From an uncultured Nitrososphaerota archaeon (GTDB lineage Archaea > Thermoproteota > Nitrososphaeria > Nitrososphaerales > Gagatemarchaeaceae), in assembly GCA_963703285.1 (NCBI GenBank), contig OY969807.1:64001-128000 (forward strand): a stretch of DNA of 64,000 bases. Reading direction: 5' to 3'. The notes beneath the pieces are model-generated. The model made no database searches and was not told where the DNA came from. It was given only the letters and a program-made list of their open reading frames with translations. The translations under genes and the position numbers were made by a program. Shown piece after piece: positions 702 to 31,390 of the stretch; within the stretch, counting starts at the first letter, position 1; each line of letters opens with the position of its first letter.

Positions 702-1177
702 CAATGTCCCGCCACCCAAAGACAGTCGCGTCCGGGGAGCGTCTGCTCGGTCGTCATATTCGTGCAGCCCGGTGGTCCTACTTGGCACGATTGCGTGCAA
801 GGTACGGGCCGATTACCTTCAGGGGCCAATATCGAAGCGATGAAACTTCGTCTCCAGGGGGGCCTACCGCGGTCACAGCATTCCATCGCTACCCACCAAG
901 TGCGGACGACCTTGGTCGAGTATATAATGCCGGCCTGCCATTCTCATCTTTGAGACGCACTTCTATCAGGTTTATTCTAACGGCGTTAATTTTCTCTCCA
1001 ACGGTGTTGACCCCAGGCTCACGTCAAGCCGGGCGGATGTCGTGGCCTTGGCCGGCGGCCCATCACTGGTTGGAATGGATTGCCGTCGCGAACTTCACTC
1101 CGGCTCGTTCTTTCACATCGTTTGCTTTATATGCAGATGCTGCGGGCCTCCGCCGAATTACTCGTCAGGCGATTGTC

Positions 1178-1354
1178 TTGTACACACCCAAGAAATGCTT
1201 CTTCTGCGGCAAGGACGTCCACCTCGGCGAGGGGATAATGCTCGTCTTGAACGACGGGTCGACCAAGAGCTACTGCTCCTCCAAGTGCAAGGTGAACGAC
1301 CGCAAGCTGAAGCGGGACCCACGCAAGTTCAAGTGGGCGAGGGAAAACAGGTAA
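1178..1354 (+). CDS. rpl24e: 50S ribosomal protein L24e
   Basis: C-terminal part of ORF 704..1354: CFFCGKDVHLGEGIMLVLNDGSTKSYCSSKC...KRDPRKFKW; TTG start at 1178; precedes ndk-infB as is usual in archaea. Confidence 0.93.
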   Translation: MYTPKKCFFCGKDVHLGEGIMLVLNDGSTKSYCSSKCKVNDRKLKRDPRKFKWARENR

Positions 1355-1767
1355 TGTCCCTCCCGCCCGTGGAGAGGACGCTCGTAGTCGTGAAGCCTGA
1401 CGCCGTGGGGCGGGGCCTCGTCGGCGAGATCATTGGGAGGTTCGAGAGGCGCGGCCTGAAGCCCGTAGAGATCAGGATGCAGACGGTGACCAAGGCCAAG
1501 GCCACTCAGTTCTACATCGTGCACAAGGACAAGCCGTTCTTCGGGGACCTCGTATCCTTCATCAGCAGCGGGCCCAGCGTCGGCGTCGTGCTCGAGGGTA
1601 GGGACGCGATCGCGCTCGTCCGCCGGGCGATAGGCTCCACCAAGAGCTGGGAGGCCGCCTCGGGGACTATAAGGGGAGACTACGCGACAGGGCTCCTGGA
1701 CAACGCCATCCACGCCTCCGACTCGAAGGAATCCTTCGACTGGGAGAGCAAGACCTACTTCTCGTAA
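1354..1767 (+). CDS. ndk: Nucleoside diphosphate kinase
   Basis: ERTLVVVKPDAV...GTIRGDY...NAIHASDS; ATG 1354 overlaps the rpl24e stop. Confidence 0.96.
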   Translation: MSLPPVERTLVVVKPDAVGRGLVGEIIGRFERRGLKPVEIRMQTVTKAKATQFYIVHKDKPFFGDLVSFISSGPSVGVVLEGRDAIALVRRAIGSTKSWEAASGTIRGDYATGLLDNAIHASDSKESFDWESKTYFS

Positions 1768-1833
1768 TCATGCCGAGCTCATTCGATAACTTATATTAAC
1801 CAGCCCTCGGGCTGAAGGTCAAGTTGTTCTCGG

Positions 1834-3627
1834 ATGTCCCAGCCCACACAGACGTTACGGCAGCCTGTAGTCGTCGTACTGGGTCACGTTGACTCTGGGA
1901 AAACCTCATTTTTGGACCGCATAAGGGGCACCGCCGTCCAAGCTCGAGAGGCCGGGGGCATCACACAGGAGATAGGCGCGAGCTTTTTCCCGATGGAGAC
2001 GCTATTCGCGATCTGCGGGCCGCTCTTGGACAAGTCGGGCGCGCAGCTGAAGATCCCTGGGCTGCTCGTCATCGACACGCCGGGCCACGAGATCTTCTCG
2101 AACCTGAGGATGCGTGGCGGGTCGGCCGCCGACATCGCCATCCTGCTCGTCGACGTCAACAAGGGCTTGGAGAACCAGACCATCGAGTCCATCGAGATCC
2201 TGAGGCAGCGGAAGGTTCCCTTCCTCGTCGCGCTCAACAAGATCGACATGATCCGGGGCTGGAGGAAGGAGACGACCGGGTCCCTTGCGAGCGCGCTGAA
2301 GCAGCAGCCGCCCGAGTGGAACGACGAGCTCGAGGAGAGGCTATACAACGTGGTCGGTGCCCTCTCCAGGCTCGGGTTCAACTCCGACGCATTCTACCGG
2401 GTGAAGGACTTCCGCAAGCAGGTATCGATTGTGCCGATCTCCGCCAGGTACGGGATAGGGATGCCCGAGATCATGGCCGTGCTCATCGGTCTCGCCCAGC
2501 AGTTCCTCGCGGAGAAGCTCGTCGCCATCGACGAGAACGGGAGGGCGAGGGGGATCATCCTCGAGCTCCAGGAGGAGGTCGGCATCGGGGAGACGGCCAA
2601 CGTGATCCTCACGGAGGGGAAGCTCTCCGTCGGGGACAGACTCGTTCTTGTGAAGAAGGAGGGGGCGGTCGAGTCCAGGGTCAAGGCGCTGTTCATGCCC
2701 AAACCCCTCGACGAGATGCGCGACCCGCGCGACAAGTTCACCCCGGTCCAAGAAGTCTACTCGGCGGCGGGGGTGAAGCTCGTCTCGCCCGACCTCGCCG
2801 GCGTGATCCCCGGGACCTCGGTCATCTCGTTCAAGTCACCCGAGGAGTTCCACTCCGTAAAAGCCGAGGCGGAGAAGGACCTCACGACGCTGGTCACCAA
2901 GACGGACATCGACGGCGTCGTCGTCAAGGCGGGTAGCATAGGGGGGCTGGAGGCGCTCCTGAGGATGCTCGAGCAGAGGCAGATACCCGTGCGGTCGGCG
3001 GACATCGGCGACATATCCAGGAACGACATCGTGGAGGCGGAGGCCGTCGCGGAGCACGACCCATACCTGGGGGTCATCATCGGCTTCGACGTCAAGGTCA
3101 TCCCGGACGCAAGGGAACAGGCGACCATGGCCCAGATAATCACCTCCGACGTGATATACGACGCGGTGGAAGGCTACGTCAAGTGGGCGGCCAACAAGAG
3201 GGACGAGGACCAGAGGAACGCGCTCTCCACGATAACCGGCCCGGCGAAGATCAAGGCGCTCCCTGGAATGTTCTTCAGGAGGAACGACCCCGCGGTCTTC
3301 GGGGTCGAGGTGGTGGGCGGCAAGCTCAGACCGAAGGTCCGGCTGATGGACGCGTCCGGCGTGGAGCTCGGCACCGTCGAGCAGATTCAGGACAACGGCA
3401 AGCCGGTCCCCGAGGCCACCCTCGGCATGCAGGTGGCGATATCGGTCCGGGGCCCGACGCTCGGCCGCCAGATCAAGGAGAACGACATCCTCTTCACGTT
3501 CCCCACCTCAGCCGACGTCAGGCTCCTCAGGGGGAAGTACGTGGGCAGTCTCAGTGCCGATGACGAGGCCGTGCTGGAGGAGATCGTCTCCATCCGTTCG
3601 GTCAAGGACATGATGTACGGGTTCTGA
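1834..3627 (+). CDS. infB: Translation initiation factor aIF5B (IF-2)
   Basis: LRQPVVVVLGHVDSGKT, REAGGITQEIGA, DTPGHE, NKID; 597 aa; no intein. Confidence 0.97.
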   Translation: MSQPTQTLRQPVVVVLGHVDSGKTSFLDRIRGTAVQAREAGGITQEIGASFFPMETLFAICGPLLDKSGAQLKIPGLLVIDTPGHEIFSNLRMRGGSAADIAILLVDVNKGLENQTIESIEILRQRKVPFLVALNKIDMIRGWRKETTGSLASALKQQPPEWNDELEERLYNVVGALSRLGFNSDAFYRVKDFRKQVSIVPISARYGIGMPEIMAVLIGLAQQFLAEKLVAIDENGRARGIILELQEEVGIGETANVILTEGKLSVGDRLVLVKKEGAVESRVKALFMPKPLDEMRDPRDKFTPVQEVYSAAGVKLVSPDLAGVIPGTSVISFKSPEEFHSVKAEAEKDLTTLVTKTDIDGVVVKAGSIGGLEALLRMLEQRQIPVRSADIGDISRNDIVEAEAVAEHDPYLGVIIGFDVKVIPDAREQATMAQIITSDVIYDAVEGYVKWAANKRDEDQRNALSTITGPAKIKALPGMFFRRNDPAVFGVEVVGGKLRPKVRLMDASGVELGTVEQIQDNGKPVPEATLGMQVAISVRGPTLGRQIKENDILFTFPTSADVRLLRGKYVGSLSADDEAVLEEIVSIRSVKDMMYGF

Positions 3628-25866: not shown

Positions 25867-26661
25867 CTACCATCCGCCTATCATCGGCGGGTAGACGCGC
25901 TTGTGCGCGGAGCTCCGGTGGCGTCTGACCACCTCTTCGATGATTTTCAGGTCCACACCGGTCTTCTTCGAGACCTCGGGGGGTGGGAGCTTCTCGTCGA
26001 AGAGGCATATCAGAACCGGATCCAGACGGTCATAGTCGAGCGGGATCTCGTCGACTGCCCTGTGTCCGGGCCAGAGCTGAGGGGAGGAGGGCTTCTGCAC
26101 GACTCGCTCTGGCAGGCCGAGGTACGCGCCCAGCCGCCTGACCTGCGTCTTGTAGAGGTGAGCTATAGGAAGGAAGTCTACGCCGCCATCCCCAAATTTC
26201 GAGAAGAACCCGATCTCGTCTTCGGACTTGTCGCCCGTGCCCGCGACGAGCATTCCTTTGGTATTGGCAAAATAGTAATTGATAATCATCCTGATTCTCG
26301 CTTTGACGTTGGCGTAGGCGATCTTCGTCTCTCCCTCTCTGGGTAGAGTCTTCTCGAATGCCGAGAAGATCGGGTCGATTCCCATCTCATAGGTCTTGAT
26401 TCCCCACCCCTTGGCAAGCGACCTCGCGTCCTCCGTATCCTCCTTCGGGGTGTGGGATGCAGGCATCAGTATCCCGATGACCTTGTCCTTGCCAAGCGCC
26501 CTGACAAGAAGTGCACCCACGACCGCGCTGTCGATGCCCCCACTGAGTCCGATGACGGCCCCATCCCTCCCGGAGTCCGAAACAACCTTTCTGATGAAAC
26601 GCAGAATCTCCTTCTCCGCCTTTGCGCAGTCCAACGACGAAGCCTTGGAATTGATCTGCAC
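25867..26661 (-). CDS. nadE: NH3-dependent NAD+ synthetase
   Basis: GLSGGIDSAV, ANVKARIRM, GTGDKSE, KFGDGGVD, LYKTQV, KPSSPQLW, SAHKR. Confidence 0.96.
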   Translation of the reverse strand: MQINSKASSLDCAKAEKEILRFIRKVVSDSGRDGAVIGLSGGIDSAVVGALLVRALGKDKVIGILMPASHTPKEDTEDARSLAKGWGIKTYEMGIDPIFSAFEKTLPREGETKIAYANVKARIRMIINYYFANTKGMLVAGTGDKSEDEIGFFSKFGDGGVDFLPIAHLYKTQVRRLGAYLGLPERVVQKPSSPQLWPGHRAVDEIPLDYDRLDPVLICLFDEKLPPPEVSKKTGVDLKIIEEVVRRHRSSAHKRVYPPMIGGW

Positions 26662-26912: not shown

Positions 26913-27323
26913 GTGTTCGTAAGAGCCAAGAGGGTCGGGCGGAGGCGATACCTCTACCTGGTCGAAGGGAGAAGGGACAACGGAAAGGTCAGGCAGGTCA
27001 CGCTCTGCTACCTCGGCCCCCTGTCGGAATTGGCCTCTGGCGTGCCAGAGGCCCTCAGGAGAGGGATTGACGTCCGTCTCCGCGTCGACTGGCAGAGGGT
27101 GAACGACGAGATTGGTCAGATCCCTCTGACGTTCGAGGAACTCTCAGAGGCGAGGAGGGCACAGTTCGCCCTTTCCGCCAGGGCGAGGACCCAGCGAGGG
27201 CGTCCCACCCAGGGCGACTTGCCGAGAAAGGAGGGGGAACTCTCCGCGCTTTCGAAGCTGGCAGCATTGAGATTCGAAGAGCTCTTCGAGGAAACCGGAG
27301 CGCTCACCTTTCGGATGAGGTGA
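26913..27323 (+). CDS. Small basic protein with IS1634-transposase-like N-terminal domain; putative antitoxin/regulator
   Basis: MFVRAKRVGRRRYLYLVEGRRDNGKVRQVTLCYLG; no DDE domain follows; overlaps the next gene. Confidence 0.55.
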   Translation: MFVRAKRVGRRRYLYLVEGRRDNGKVRQVTLCYLGPLSELASGVPEALRRGIDVRLRVDWQRVNDEIGQIPLTFEELSEARRAQFALSARARTQRGRPTQGDLPRKEGELSALSKLAALRFEELFEETGALTFRMR

Positions 27324-27928
27324 GGAAGATGATTCCGAGCAGAAGAACCCCAGCCGGGCCACGCAAGGGGCCCCGGCGCACACCACCGCGAATCATCCTA
27401 GCGCAGCTCAGGAAGGAGCCGAACGAGCTGAAGAAAAAGATGCTCCTCCTCGGATTCATCTCTGATGAACTATCGAGAAAGGATGGTTTCCTCTTCCTCG
27501 TCGGGGGGCAGGCGGTCGAGACCTACACCGCCGGTCAGTTCACGACCGGAGATGTCGACATCACCACCACTGACCAGGAGGCGACGGAGAACTTGCTGAG
27601 CCGATTGGCCTTCAAGAGAGAGGGGATGGTCTGGCTGAACGAGAAACTGGCCATCGCAATCCACATCGTCGGCTCTTATCCAACGAGGACTGAGAAGGTT
27701 CGCACCCTGGAGGTCGGAGGGTACTTGGTCAGGATAGTTGGGATTGAGGAGTTGATAATAGACAGGCTGAAAGCAGCGAAGTTCTGGAAGAGCAGACGAG
27801 ACTCCGAGCAGGCCGTTGTCCTCTTCGACGGTTTCAGGGAGCGCATTGACCGTGAATATCTCAGGAAGAGAGCCAGAGAGGAGAAGGTCGATGACATCCT
27901 TCCCGAAGTTGGGCGGATGAACGGTTAG
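27320..27928 (+). CDS. Nucleotidyltransferase (AbiEii/DUF6036-like), putative toxin
   Basis: LVGGQAVETY...TTGDVDI...EELIIDRL...IDREYL. Confidence 0.7.
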   Translation: MRKMIPSRRTPAGPRKGPRRTPPRIILAQLRKEPNELKKKMLLLGFISDELSRKDGFLFLVGGQAVETYTAGQFTTGDVDITTTDQEATENLLSRLAFKREGMVWLNEKLAIAIHIVGSYPTRTEKVRTLEVGGYLVRIVGIEELIIDRLKAAKFWKSRRDSEQAVVLFDGFRERIDREYLRKRAREEKVDDILPEVGRMNG

Positions 27929-28071
27929 CAGGTAACTCGGGACAGAGCCTCGATGCGGTTATCTCGAGCACGATGTTTGGCCAGAAGTAGAGCAAGAGAC
28001 CTCAAAATCAATAAAGACTCTCACTGGGAGAAGCCGGAGTCGACGGCGATGCTTTGACCGGGCCCAAAGGG

Positions 28072-28152
28072 ATGAAGATTTTGTCGATCCTGTGGGCCCC
28101 ATTCGGGTTTCGCGTGTTGCTTAAATCTTCGTTCCACCTGTCAAACAGTTGA
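28072..28152 (+). pseudogene. Orphaned 5' copy of the glycosyltransferase gene (14 homologous codons, then unrelated sequence)
   Basis: MKILSILWAPFGFR matches MKTIVLVWGPFGFR at 28887-28929; its TGA (28150-28152) overlaps the endonuclease TTG start. Confidence 0.72.
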
Positions 28153-28886
28153 GAAGAGGATCGCACCATTCCGTCGAGGCCAAGCGGAAGGTGTCGGAGG
28201 CTAGAAGAGGAAATCATCCAAAGACAGAGTTCAAGAAGGGTAACACCCTGTGGGTAGGAAGGCATCACTCTGAGGAGTCGAGACAGAGGATTTCTCGGGC
28301 GCTCATCGGTAGGACAGAGTCCGTTGAAACTCGAGCCCGAAAATCTAGGGCACACATGGGAAAGATCCCTTGGAACAAGGGTCTGACAAAAGAGACGACG
28401 CCAAGCTTGGCAAGGATCGGGGAGAAGAAAAGATCGTGGTGGACCGATGATAGGAAGAAACAACTAGCTGAGCGTAACCACTGGTTCTTCAGAGAATGGT
28501 GGAGAAAACATCCCGAACACGCGGAAACAATGGCGAGGGTCGCCAGGCCAACAACAATCGAGATGCTCGCGAGAGAGTCTCTGACGAAGAGAGGGGTGAA
28601 GTTCTCAGTCTGCAAGAGGGTCGAAGAGATTTGTTTTCCCGATCTCTTCCTTCCTGATGAAAAAATCGCGATATTCTGCAACGGTTGTTACTGGCACGCT
28701 TGTCCGAAGCACTGTCCAAGCGTGCCAGACTGGCTTCGAAAGAAGATTAAGGACCGACAAATCTATGAAGAGCTCGGAAGACGTGGTTGGAAGGTGCTAG
28801 CCATCTGGGAACATGAGTTCAAGCTTAATCACGATGTAGCTGGAGAGAGACTTGAACAGATGCTCCATGACGCGAGAGGTGAGTGA
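28149..28886 (+). CDS. Free-standing homing-endonuclease-like protein: NUMOD3-type repeats plus Vsr/EDxHD nuclease domain
   Basis: HHSVEAKRKVSEARRG, HHSEESRQRISRALIG, ESVETRARKSRAHMG, PWNKGLTKE; then TTIE...PDLFL...AIFCNGCYWH...KD...GWKVLAIWEHE. Confidence 0.85.
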   Translation: MRRGSHHSVEAKRKVSEARRGNHPKTEFKKGNTLWVGRHHSEESRQRISRALIGRTESVETRARKSRAHMGKIPWNKGLTKETTPSLARIGEKKRSWWTDDRKKQLAERNHWFFREWWRKHPEHAETMARVARPTTIEMLARESLTKRGVKFSVCKRVEEICFPDLFLPDEKIAIFCNGCYWHACPKHCPSVPDWLRKKIKDRQIYEELGRRGWKVLAIWEHEFKLNHDVAGERLEQMLHDARGE

Positions 28887-29895
28887 ATGAAAACCATAGT
28901 CTTGGTTTGGGGTCCCTTTCGGCTTTCGTGCTGATGAACTCGCGGAATCCGTGGGTGCCGAGAGGGTCAGCATCACCGTCCTCTACGGCCCGCGATACTT
29001 CGCACCCATCCGCTACGTGGCGCTCTTCTTCAAGACCCTTCTGATACTCTCCCAGCGGAAGCCGGATGTCGTCTACGCCCAGAACCCTCCGGTGTTCTGC
29101 CCCCTCACCTGCATGCTCTACTGCCGTGCCACCGGCAAGAAGCTGGTCATAGACCACCACTCGGTTTGGAAGGTCAAGACCCTCGGCCGGGGGCCACTAT
29201 CCAGAATCATAGGGGTCCTTGAGGGGGTCGTCTCCCGCTCGGCCGCTGGGAACACCGCTCCCCACGTCTTCTGGGCCGAGATGCTCAGGTCGATGGGCGC
29301 TAGGAACGTTCTGGTGGTGCACGACTATGTCGAGAGGAACACCAACGCGCGCGACGAAAAGCTGCGGCTCTCCTTCACGGACAGGCCCTTGGTGGCGGTC
29401 TGCTCCCACGGCGGGCATCCCCTCGAGCGTATCGAGGCCGAGGCGTCCGGCGTCGGTCAGGTCGGCTCCGTCGAGCTGCTGATCACCGGCCCGAAAGAGA
29501 AGCTCGAGCGCAGGCTCTCAGCGGTCGCGCTCCCGGAGAACGTCCGGTACCTGGGCTTCCTCCCGAGGCAGACCTACGAGTCGCTCAAGGCCTCCGCCGA
29601 CATGGCGATCAACGTGACCGACGAGCCCTTCACCCTCTCTCACGTGCTCCTGGAGTATGCGGCCAGCTCCCTCCCGGTGATATCCTCCAGGGAGGAAGTG
29701 GTGCGGGGGTTCTTCGGGGACGCCCTGCTGTACACCGACACCACGGACTCCGCCGAGGTCGCGGAGAAGGTGAGGATGATGCTCGACCCGGCCGTCCGTG
29801 ACGAGTACAGGGAGAGGGTGACGAGGTGGTACGGCGAGCTCTCCCTCTCGCACCAGGCCGAGGTGCGGTCGCTCAGGTCGCTGCTGGGCCGATAA
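28887..29895 (+). CDS. Glycosyltransferase family 4-like protein (one extra base at about 28917-28920)
   Basis: MKTIVLVWGPF/GFRADELAESVGAERV...KPDVVYAQNPP...VIDHHS...NVRYLGFLP...LEYAASSLPVISS; the ORF track starts at GTG 28951. Confidence 0.82.
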
Positions 29896-31390
29896 CCGGT
29901 TTCAGGAGGGCCCTCGTGAGCCGCCGGAAGTTCCCGTCGGTCGCGAACAGGAACGCGAAGTAGATCAGCACGCCCAGGATGCCGATCACGGCGAGCTCCT
30001 CCGTGAAGTCGAGGCTGCGAACATGGTAGCTCAGGTAGCCGCCCGCTGCCAGGAAGAAGACACCCATCAGCGCCGACCCCGTCACGTACTTGAGGAACGA
30101 GGGTCTCAGGGAGAGCTTCCCGCTCTTCCTGATTCTGACGACCCGCGCAGCCACGAAGACCGAGAAGACGACCAGCTGGGCGGCCGCCCACGCGTCGATT
30201 ATCGCCTCGGGCGAGGCCCCGATGTGTGCCCCGACGGCGACGATCACGAGGACAGAGAGCACGTAGGCCACGGCGCTCGCGATATCAACGAGGAAGACGA
30301 AGAACAGGTTGCTGTGGAGGAAGTGCGTGAACCCGGCCGAGTCGTCGGCGTCGACCGTCACCCTCCCGGAGAGGACGTTGTCGAGGATCTGTGCCATCGC
30401 GTAGACGAGCGCGGAGAACGCCAGGATTTCCAGGGCCGTCGTGCTCTCGACGTAGTACATCGACTTCGGACTGAGCACGAAGAGTATCGGCTTCGCAAGG
30501 GTCGCAGCCCCGACGGCCATGGGGATTCCGAAGAGGAGCGAAAGGTCGAGCGTGATCGTGGGCAGCTCCTCGGAGCCCGCCCCGCCCCTGAGGAGGAGCG
30601 GGTAGAGCGCCGCCCCAAGGTAGTAGGAATACCCGGCGAGCGTCGCCACCGCGGCCGCCGCCTGATAGAACCCGACCGTCATCGTCCCTCCGGCGACGAG
30701 GCTAGCCACGAAGGTGTCCGCGATGCCGAGTATGTATGGTAGCGTCGCGAGGGAGGGCAGCCAGGCCCGCCTCCACCACCTCCTCCCAGAGTCAGGGTCG
30801 AACGGGAGCTGCAGCGCCCCCCTCGCGAGGAGCGTGGAGCTAGCCGCCTGGGCGAAGTTCGCCGCCATCAGGGAGACTATGACGCCGTCGATGCCCACGT
30901 GGAAGACGATCAGGAGGGGGTACGCGAAAGCAAGCTTGCTGACCTCCGAGGCCATCGTCGAGTAGCCCAGCACAATGGGGTCGTAGCCCGAGACGATGGC
31001 GTTCGATGCCTGGCTCCAGTACGCTATCGGCACGAGGAAGATTGCGAGGAGCATCGTCGTCAGGTCCGAGTGTCCTATTCGGGCGGACGTGGCGAAGGAG
31101 AGCACCGCGTAGAGCGCCATCCCCCCCAGGCTTAGGACCATGTTCATCCCGAGGGCCGTCTTTCCGAGCATCCGCCCCCTCGCTATGTCGCGCGTTGCCC
31201 AGTAGACGAGTATCCCTGCTGGGTACGAGGCGAAGGTGACGAGGTCGAGTACCACCTCCCAGAGCCCGAACTGGGAGACGGAGAGCGACCTGGTCATCAT
31301 GAGGAGGAACGCAAGACCGGTGAAGATGCTGACGAGCCTGAACGAGAAGACCGCGAACCCAGTTCTCCTGACGGAGATGCGTTTCGCCAT
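29873..31390 (-). CDS. Polysaccharide flippase-like membrane protein
   Basis: MTRSLSVSQFGLWE, VGFYQAA, LYPLLL; about 14 hydrophobic segments. Confidence 0.78.
   Translation of the reverse strand: MAKRISVRRTGFAVFSFRLVSIFTGLAFLLMMTRSLSVSQFGLWEVVLDLVTFASYPAGILVYWATRDIARGRMLGKTALGMNMVLSLGGMALYAVLSFATSARIGHSDLTTMLLAIFLVPIAYWSQASNAIVSGYDPIVLGYSTMASEVSKLAFAYPLLIVFHVGIDGVIVSLMAANFAQAASSTLLARGALQLPFDPDSGRRWWRRAWLPSLATLPYILGIADTFVASLVAGGTMTVGFYQAAAAVATLAGYSYYLGAALYPLLLRGGAGSEELPTITLDLSLLFGIPMAVGAATLAKPILFVLSPKSMYYVESTTALEILAFSALVYAMAQILDNVLSGRVTVDADDSAGFTHFLHSNLFFVFLVDIASAVAYVLSVLVIVAVGAHIGASPEAIIDAWAAAQLVVFSVFVAARVVRIRKSGKLSLRPSFLKYVTGSALMGVFFLAAGGYLSYHVRSLDFTEELAVIGILGVLIYFAFLFATDGNFRRLTRALLKPVIGPAAT

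Follow-up and report, generated by a model that had tools for sequence, protein, structure and literature searches.

How can the gene of a homing endonuclease settle within the coding region of an archaeal gene when neither an intron nor an intein accommodates it, and how could the interrupted gene still yield its product? This question is raised by a locus in a stretch of 64,000 nucleotides (positions 64,001 to 128,000 of contig OY969807.1, assembly GCA_963703285.1; hereafter called the window), which originates from the closed, 2.25 Mb genome of an uncultured Nitrososphaerota archaeon. A gene for a NUMOD3/Vsr-type nuclease, a presumed homing endonuclease, is flanked there on either side by a copy of codons 1-14 of a gene for a GT4-like glycosyltransferase. 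The explanation which we consider likely is that an intron-less and intein-less homing cassette, consisting of a promoter, the nuclease gene and a replacement 5' end, has entered the glycosyltransferase gene, which would now need programmed +1 ribosomal frameshifting for its expression. A preliminary description of the window, made from the sequence of this stretch, had already proposed such a cassette with promoter, nuclease, new N-terminus and orphaned old start, and the comparative data presented below bear it out. The same description had treated an extra T in the replacement end as a detail; this base belongs, however, to a putative frameshift site that is conserved, and no other feature of the locus is as unusual.

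Organization of the interrupted gene

All coordinates were verified within 28000-29900 on the plus strand. The original 5' end of the glycosyltransferase gene, MKILSILWAPFGFR (28072-28113), comprises 14 codons from ATG to CGC and is homologous to the starts of uninterrupted ("empty") alleles; after 28113 its frame runs through 12 unrelated codons to a TGA at 28150-28152. The left end of the cassette, with the TATA-like sequence GCTTAAATC (28119-28127; CTTAAAT at 28120-28126), is kept directly 3' of this orphan. The nuclease gene (28149-28886; 245 residues, TTG start, TGA at 28884-28886) gave Pfam matches to NUMOD3 (E 1.7e-10, in two stretches) and Vsr (E 2.2e-8). Immediately 3' of its stop codon, the ATG at 28887 opens the cassette-borne replacement 5' end, of which codons 1-11 (MKTIVLVWGPF, 28887-28919) are read in the frame of this ATG. 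The proposed +1 frameshift site, CCC TTT C GG, occupies 28914-28922, and the glycosyltransferase continues from codon 12 (GFRADEL..., 28921-29895) in the +1 frame up to the TAA at 29893-29895 (Pfam: GT4-type, GT-B). Ribosomes which do not shift would read RLSC in the old frame and reach a TGA at 28932-28934. The content of G+C is 0.48-0.53 over the nuclease gene, compared with about 0.62-0.66 in the flanking genes.

The position of the nuclease gene between two copies of the same N-terminus, with 8 of 14 residues identical, and the direct succession of nuclease stop and downstream ATG are as they had been given in the preliminary description. The downstream copy, which had been taken to run continuously into the GT4 body, does not do so, since the frame breaks at a real extra base within CCC TTT C GGC (28914-28923). 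A short-read contig from a soil metagenome (X3, record 7) spans 28863-29013 with zero differences; the four DNA runs are contigs of this same study, which is possibly the source of the window itself, and confirm the DNA sequence only. Sequencing error as the origin of the extra base was rejected, since 14 assemblies obtained by different methods share it.

The TGA of the orphan frame overlaps the TTG start codon of the nuclease gene (28149-28151), so that transcription from the native promoter could lead to coupled translation of the orphan peptide and the nuclease.

Empty alleles and the orphaned gene start

Of 41 genomes searched, 23 contain an orthologue of the glycosyltransferase, among them 20 of the 22 from the same genus. 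Species-representative genomes were scanned as well and yielded 32 loci, from which 30 (L047-L076) were analysed, leaving out L077 (no 5' end) and L078 (a bacterial protein with 32% identity). The related loci belong to Nitrososphaerota, including Candidatus Gagatemarchaeum. At 23 of the 30 loci the allele is free of a nuclease and starts with (M/V/L)KILxLVWGPFGFR, or with the close variants FGHR, FGYR or FSDR, joined directly to ADEL; this is the sequence which had been anticipated for empty alleles (WGPFGFR joined straight to ADELAE). A second N-terminal copy and the extra base are absent from all 23. W8, F11, R14 and E17 are invariant among 20 aligned in-frame orthologues, and therefore the first 14 residues belong to the protein. 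That relatives without the nuclease should possess one N-terminus only, and that GT4 orthologues should begin with this motif, was thus correctly foreseen. No solved structure matched the orthologue profile at E<=0.001.

Two empty alleles deserve mention for other reasons. The glycosyltransferase gene of G009 (L012/L045/L056, C3; FGYR type) has a further frame break near residue 65; this gene, as well as the frameshift-type allele L081 with a break in its body, may be a pseudogene or the result of an assembly error. L066 (G008:C3) has an N-terminus of the FGDR type but no nuclease within 4 kb upstream; it may represent a cassette-derived end which outlived its nuclease, or a native variant.

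The upstream copy, together with about 70 nt preceding it, aligns with the promoter and 5' end of uninterrupted alleles at five distinct loci, and hence the duplication is not a chance match. The promoter-like motif AATCAATAAAGAC (28006-28018, plus strand), presumably the native promoter of the glycosyltransferase gene, aligns with the region 5' of the empty allele of G014 and of the orphan of G001. The motif shared by the upstream regions is AATCAATAAAG for one host clade and CATGCTTTAATG for the second. An orphan matches the promoter of the clade to which its host belongs, whereas replacement ends are of a single type across the two clades. The orphan stops precisely at FGFR in the window, in G001 (=L048/L079), in G020 (=L063), in L080 and in L088. 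Various stages of decay were observed: the start codon is lost in L048, an in-frame TGA has arisen in L083, the orphan of L084 is scrambled, that of L082 is at most a vestige, and in L052, L061 and L064 it is gone by deletions which also removed most of the nuclease. Orphan status was judged where upstream DNA sufficed, four contigs beginning inside the nuclease; at all loci so judged the duplicated host N-terminus, intact or decayed, accompanied the nuclease homologues, a recurrence which the preliminary description had expected.

These orphans are relevant for the notion that the cassette is spliced out as an archaeal bulge-helix-bulge intron, by which the upstream 14 codons would be joined to ADEL and the downstream copy would be a relic. 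Pairing between the junctions was indeed stronger than in shuffled sequences (-36.1 versus -28.5 +/- 3.7 kcal/mol), although 7 of 200 shuffles reached the same value. By a simple, non-exhaustive check the predicted junction pairing has no bulge-helix-bulge geometry, and a match in Rfam was not obtained at E<=1, which agrees with the earlier inspection of the sequence. Moreover, it is the upstream copy that loses its start, gains a stop, decays or vanishes at the loci listed above, whereas the downstream copy is conserved codon by codon. Splicing therefore appears to be extremely improbable.

The nuclease family

The nuclease gene is present in a single copy in the genome of the window, and close relatives are rare, with 33 proteins at E<=1e-5 in a large protein collection. 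In the genomes G001, G019, G020 and G021 the nuclease gene lies directly 5' of the glycosyltransferase gene. A scan of metagenomes yielded 77 nuclease loci, including 13 with at least 53% identity, and each of these 13 is situated directly 5' of a glycosyltransferase start (12 as determined by tblastn, and L086, whose contig ends a few codons into the glycosyltransferase gene, by the motif). The close family is thus tied to one site. In viral contigs distant homologues are common, but no close copy of the cassette was found there; the best 80 of 189 confirmed stretches showed identities of 25-45%.

Among 19 aligned relatives, E159, D165, H183 and D202 as well as a WEH motif are invariant. D165, N178, H183 and D202 align with D51, H64, H69 and D97 of Vsr from E. 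coli; the composite EDxHD motif is therefore present and invariant, with N at the position of H64 of Vsr. C180, C185 and H188 are likewise invariant in the 19 sequences, and a Vsr-like Cys/His cluster is thus kept. Members of the EDxHD family, with I-Bth0305I as the studied example, occur in introns, in inteins and free-standing (PMC3239194). The assignment to the EDxHD, or I-Bth0305I, type in the preliminary description holds for the architecture and the composite catalytic motif; in sequence, however, the family profile is much nearer to Vsr (E 2.4e-12) than to the I-Bth0305I domain 3R3P (E 0.03). We say, judging from these residues, that the nuclease would work like an EDxHD enzyme, and leave family membership open. 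The ratio of nonsynonymous to synonymous substitution rates (dN/dS) in the C-terminal part is 0.18. The nuclease of the window is without some 35-40 N-terminal residues which are present in most relatives.

A more distant relative was encountered in another context. At L035 (G021:C8:78589-82242; 727-3082, minus strand), an intein-like insert (Intein_splicing, E 9.8e-5, below the Pfam cut-off) interrupts a gene for the small subunit of replication factor C behind the residues DEADEM. The insert is divided between two overlapping frames and holds a NUMOD3/Vsr nuclease with 30% identity to that of the window.

Contents of the cassette

GCTTAAATC is the first cassette sequence after the junction: it follows directly on the orphan FGFR(A) codons in the window, in L063, L082, L083, L084 and L088 and in the second cassette of G019, with a T-rich variant in its place in L048/L080. 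This conservation justifies the earlier inclusion of a TATA-like element in the cassette. The position of CTTAAAT was likewise given correctly; the distance to the nuclease start, noted as about 25 nt, is 22 nt from the end of GCTTAAATC in the window and in L088 (counted by hand in the printed sequences). From its spacing, the element would fit an archaeal TATA box for a leaderless or nearly leaderless transcript.

Across the cassettes, the new start codon either adjoins the stop codon of the nuclease gene or overlaps with it. The 10 nt which precede the new start (GGTGAnTGA) match the native pre-start sequence in empty alleles of one host clade, from which it follows that the replacement end was captured from a real allele together with the ribosome-binding region. 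A comparison of L048 with L050 and the window shows that the transferred segment ends, on its right side, no further than ~90 nt into the gene. Changes in the replacement end cluster close to the junction, i.e., the extra base at a distance of 9-10 nt, and, in the FGDR type, a change of F13 to D at 4-6 nt; L084 has an unchanged, in-frame FGFR.

Two other arrangements were considered and rejected. A fusion of nuclease and transferase by stop codon read-through is incompatible with the relative frame of the two genes, which varies among loci, and with a TAG at 28897 in the transferase frame of the window. An intein was discarded, since the nuclease gene possesses start and stop codons of its own and Pfam indicated neither a Hint nor an intein domain in its product.

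Spread, decay and re-invasion

Occupied alleles are interleaved with empty ones on two trees, that of the glycosyltransferase and that of the putative flippase encoded next to it; in each, the occupied L048 and the empty L050 are sisters (support values 99/98 and 100/100). Alleles of the frameshift type were found in either of the two major host clades. When the window is compared with L048, synonymous divergence (dS) rises from 0.28 in the nuclease (C-terminal two-thirds) to 0.62 over the 60 initial codons of the glycosyltransferase and 0.97 over its remaining codons, a step which is also visible in DNA identity. Correspondingly, the first 90 nt of the L048 gene are 86% identical to the window and 78% to its sister L050, whereas the remainder, in 90-nt windows, is 74-94% identical to L050 and 69-83% to the window. 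The cassette has thus spread horizontally.

The nucleases were found intact, frameshifted, truncated or as tail-only remnants (remnants in L052, L061, L064 and L091). G019 contains two nucleases in tandem with a frameshift-type replacement end between them, the slip site of which is mutated; at the FGF(R) position of this end follow GCTTAAATC and the second nuclease, which is of the FGDR type. Here, a cassette has inserted for a second time at the same codon, in an allele which was already occupied. Conserved catalytic residues, presence or absence at a fixed site, decayed copies, an independent insertion and horizontal spread, by which free-standing homing endonuclease genes are recognized, are all found here, and the sequences show repeated, site-specific, horizontally spreading insertion with subsequent decay, as in the expected life cycle of such a gene.

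It might be argued that the nuclease is a resident Vsr-like repair or defence gene which is merely syntenic, and that the duplicated 5' end arose by a local tandem duplication. The closer similarity of its catalytic domain to Vsr than to I-Bth0305I and the retained Cys/His cluster would be in line with this notion. A resident gene, however, should not differ in presence between sister species, nor should it exist as intact, frameshifted, truncated and tail-only copies; its dS would not be expected to lie far below that of the host genes. The host-specific orphans next to a shared replacement end, the second insertion nested at the same codon, the NUMOD3 DNA-binding repeats, which are typical of homing enzymes, and the occurrence of a homologue inside an intein-like insert speak against it as well, so that we give this notion only a very slight chance.

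The extra base and the proposed +1 frameshift

The frameshift-type gene start was found 16 times, in 14 distinct sequences (the window and loci between L047 and L091). All 14 read TGG GGY CCC TTT C GGN, while synonymous codons around the site have drifted, each in its own frame: Leu6 is encoded by six different codons, Gly12 by four and Arg14 by five. In the 30 codons 3' of the site, read in the +1 frame in 13 sequences (L086 being too short), the third position is variable in 29 codons, the first in 12 and the second in 6. Upstream of the site the signal is weaker, with 6, 3 and 7 variable first, second and third positions, respectively, in 10 codons. Purifying selection acts on both sides of the frame break.

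In the 27 distinct in-frame alleles, proline is encoded by CCG (11), CCC (9), CCA (3) or CCT (2), with AGC instead in two, and phenylalanine by TTC (21) or TTT (6); CCC and TTT occur together in one of the 27. TTT is a rare codon in the genome of the window (2.9 per mil versus 34.8 for TTC). No conserved in-frame start codon follows the site: the first start is 3-87 codons further on, and in five alleles at least 42 codons, where it lies past invariant residues. The old frame ends 5-9 codons past the site in all 14 alleles (5 in the window).

In the old frame, UUU_CGN is present exactly where the reading frame must change. This motif directs +1 frameshifting in the PA-X gene of influenza A virus (UCC_UUU_CGU) and in plant amalgaviruses (PMC5052127), and UUU_Ynn is reported as especially prone to +1 shifts in E. 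coli (PMC5009743). One tRNA-Phe reads UUU by wobble and UUC by full pairing (PMC5052127), and a forward shift would therefore be favoured. CCC UUU C permits re-pairing by one base forward either from CCC to CCU or from UUU to UUC, and the protein is identical in both cases.

Another possibility is that the frameshift kills the glycosyltransferase, so that the gene is a pseudogene and the site is conserved by shared ancestry. L081, with a second frame break in its body, and the descent of the 14 alleles from one event would accord with a dead gene. However, dN/dS values for the body are 0.16, 0.15 and 0.22 in frameshift-type pairs (at dS of ~0.9-1.1), similar to 0.18 and 0.13 in intact pairs; in all 11 alleles with contigs extending to the gene end the body is open, L081 being counted among them notwithstanding its frame break; CCC TTT C GG is invariant between codons that are synonymously saturated; and the frameshift type persists across nuclease lineages which are only ~50% identical. 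A pseudogene is thus quite unlikely.

According to a quick tree of the 150 C-terminal residues, the frameshift type occurs in all five nuclease lineages, and the in-frame cassette types (FGDR; L084) are nested in frameshift-bearing groups with support of 83 and 99; hence the frameshift looks ancestral to the cassette family. It was seen only beside a nuclease or a nuclease remnant.

A cassette as described here could also have its extra base corrected by other means than a ribosomal shift, namely transcriptional slippage, U-removing RNA editing or a tRNA which reads four bases. The conservation of CCC TTT C would suit a signal at the RNA level equally well, and the tRNA set is incompletely known: the lists of ARAGORN, which are incomplete or noisy (16 tRNAs without introns, 42 with introns), contain no tRNA-Phe and no tRNA with a four-base anticodon. 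Four-letter decoding (TTTC=F, CCCT=P) reproduces the junction ...WGPFGFRADEL; the four-letter words recur in frame further on, and neither decoding yields the whole product. The run consists of only three T and three C, far below the length of known polymerase slippage tracts (PMC5009743), and the site matches a documented ribosomal +1 motif, UUU_CGN; the failure of ARAGORN to show a four-base-anticodon tRNA points in the same direction, though its intron mode is noisy. Correction by such means is therefore regarded as improbable, if somewhat less so than a dead gene.

Among 19 sites examined, no second gene depending on CCCTTTCGG was found in the genome of the window. A candidate near genome position 179322 was discarded; it is an ordinary single-frame gene which, judged by eye, resembles arginyl-tRNA synthetase.

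Proposed course of insertion and self-immunity

On the preferred explanation, a homing cassette with programmed +1 frameshifting, the events could be pictured as follows. The cassette would comprise its own TATA-like promoter, the NUMOD3/Vsr-type nuclease gene and an old ribosome-binding region with start codon and 14 codons. The nuclease would cut uninterrupted alleles of the GT4-like glycosyltransferase gene near codons 11-16, and repair would copy the cassette in after the FGFR(A) codons. The native promoter and the first 14 codons would remain as an orphan and later decay, while the enzyme would now be made from the cassette-borne start right after the nuclease stop. In the commonest and apparently ancestral type of cassette, to which that of the window belongs, the replacement end has one extra base (CCC UUU C GG), and the full enzyme would need a +1 shift, either of peptidyl-tRNA-Phe from the rare UUU to UUC or of tRNA-Pro from CCC to CCU; unshifted ribosomes would terminate 5 codons later.

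A homing enzyme must not cut its own allele. Because the new codons 1-14 are placed before codon 15 and those following, the cassette rebuilds its own insertion sequence. The extra base, 9-10 nt from the insertion point, may make this rebuilt target resistant to the cassette's own nuclease. Such a role would parallel that of the 50-nt bypass insert in gene 60 of phage T4, which is situated 20 nt away from the nick site, confers protection against MobA and travels with it (bioRxiv 10.1101/2022.08.31.505936; PMC5009743). By this analogy we tentatively suggest, as a possibility rather than an expectation, that the extra base is a device for self-immunity, with the target broken at the level of DNA and the change rendered harmless in the protein by a programmed +1 frameshift.

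Several observations weigh against this scheme or parts of it. The replacement end of L084 is unchanged, from which it follows that a cassette can do without an altered target; in G019 a frameshift-type end was no barrier to the entry of the FGDR-type cassette. The nuclease of the window is short at its N-terminus and may therefore no longer bind its target. With respect to the shift, CGG is not rare in the genome of the window (9.9 per mil), and a pause at a "hungry codon" is consequently unsupported. A conserved RNA structure 3' of the site was sought, and compensatory changes were seen in 0 of 20 pairs. In rabbit reticulocyte lysates UUU_CGN shifts at only ~1-2% (PMC5052127), a rate from which very little enzyme would result. 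The 14 alleles share ancestry, and 14 of 14 are therefore not 14 independent trials. Finally, the frameshift-type allele L081 has its extra frame break near residue 157, which would mean a dead gene or a contig error.

If the immunity proposal were true, a conserved +1 frameshift would have been met for the first time in a cellular gene of archaea, and gene 60 of T4 would be joined by a second known case of a recoding signal spreading within a homing element; the later FGDR-type cassettes, as in G019, would then mark the second round of an arms race about a single target of 20 bp. Apart from immunity, 14 natural alleles point to an archaeal +1 site with a motif known from eukaryotic viruses, and the small gene makes the site easy to test. 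The cassette also shows a third way for an intron-less and intein-less homing endonuclease to exist inside a gene, namely by providing a new gene start, in contrast to splicing or to a division of the gene product into two proteins. The history of the family among uncultured soil Nitrososphaerota, with invasion, decay, re-invasion and horizontal spread, can still be read from its loci. For annotation the site matters as well, since the glycosyltransferase would otherwise be called from a late start codon or as a pseudogene in these genomes.

Neighbouring genes

The neighbours of the glycosyltransferase gene include a gene for a sugar nucleotidyltransferase and one for a large membrane protein without a Pfam match at E<=0.01. 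From its size, position and hydrophobic sequence, the latter is a putative flippase. With these two neighbours, a cluster for glycan synthesis is plausible.

Between a gene for NAD synthetase and the native glycosyltransferase promoter, the window contains two overlapping open reading frames (26913-27928, plus strand), one of 136 residues without a family match and one of 202 residues with a weak match to the nucleotidyltransferase family DUF6036 (E 0.0077, below the cut-off). No counterpart was found by tblastn at this place in G001 or G014. Their G+C content is 0.54-0.57 over the second frame and up to 0.65 over the first. The NAD synthetase gene itself (25867-26661, minus strand) has no insert in the window, while its counterpart in G001 (L043, C78) has an in-frame insert of ~385 codons, with C as the first residue, N as the last followed by T, and two LAGLIDADG-like blocks; judged by these features it is probably an intein. 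In G014 an insert of the same size is present at the same place, but it contains stops.

Comparison with known systems

Both kinds of system, homing endonuclease genes within genes and +1 frameshift sites, are already known; what sets the present locus apart is the combination of its nuclease family, a gene start that is replaced, recoding by a single base and the setting in an archaeal chromosome. One programmed frameshift, of -1 in fucA1, is listed as shown in Archaea in a review of 2021, with further cases only proposed (PMC8211752). A search of the literature, with most subscription journals out of reach, yielded no description of this locus or of a +1 frameshift in an archaeal cellular gene. 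The preliminary description, which knew of no archaeal precedent, was right in so far as none with a replacement gene end was met, but free-standing homing endonuclease genes have been reported from glycosylation gene clusters of Haloferax. These alternative clusters resemble the present locus in the archaeal chromosome, the glycosylation genes and a homing endonuclease gene without intron or intein (PMC5867893). The Haloferax genes are, however, of the LAGLIDADG type and lie between genes, and that report describes no interrupted gene, duplicated end or recoding (PMC5867893).

With respect to the enzyme, I-Bth0305I shares with the archaeal nuclease the N-terminal NUMOD repeats, the C-terminal Vsr-like domain, the composite E-D-x-H-D motif and N at the position of H64. 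The archaeal enzyme differs in having NUMOD3 instead of NUMOD2 and in keeping the Vsr-like Cys/His cluster, which I-Bth0305I lacks (PMC3239194).

With respect to the frameshift, the sites of PA-X and the amalgaviruses are similar in having UUU followed by C, in re-pairing of tRNA-Phe on UUC, in an arginine codon CGN in the A site and in the conservation of the motif against synonymous drift (PMC5052127). Those are sites of eukaryotic viruses which give a second product with low efficiency (PMC5052127), whereas at the archaeal site the shifted product alone would be useful, the gene is cellular, and CGG is not rare.

A duplicated piece of the host gene, with one functional copy and one fragment, is also known from free-standing homing endonuclease genes in fungal mitochondria (atp6, cob; PMC6279837). 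In the mitochondrial cases it is the C-terminal end which is duplicated, and the enzymes are of the LAGLIDADG or GIY-YIG type (PMC6279837); in the archaeal cassette, it is the N-terminal end, with start codon and ribosome-binding region, and the new copy would need a frameshift.

The closest analogue would appear to be the mobA/gene 60 bypass cassette of phage T4 (Bonocora et al. 2011, cited in bioRxiv 10.1101/2022.08.31.505936; PMC5009743). In both, an intron-less and intein-less homing endonuclease gene is situated inside a coding region and travels with a downstream recoding signal, proposed in the archaeal case, near its target, and in both there are copies in which the nuclease has decayed and the signal is retained. 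In T4 the nuclease is of the HNH type, the gene is split into two tailed proteins and the ribosome hops over 50 nt; the archaeal cassette has a NUMOD3 and Vsr-type nuclease, leaves the gene whole by means of 14 fresh codons, would require a shift by a single base and resides in an archaeal chromosome. The recoding signal of T4 protects the occupied allele; for the archaeal extra base, protection is proposed by analogy, from its position.

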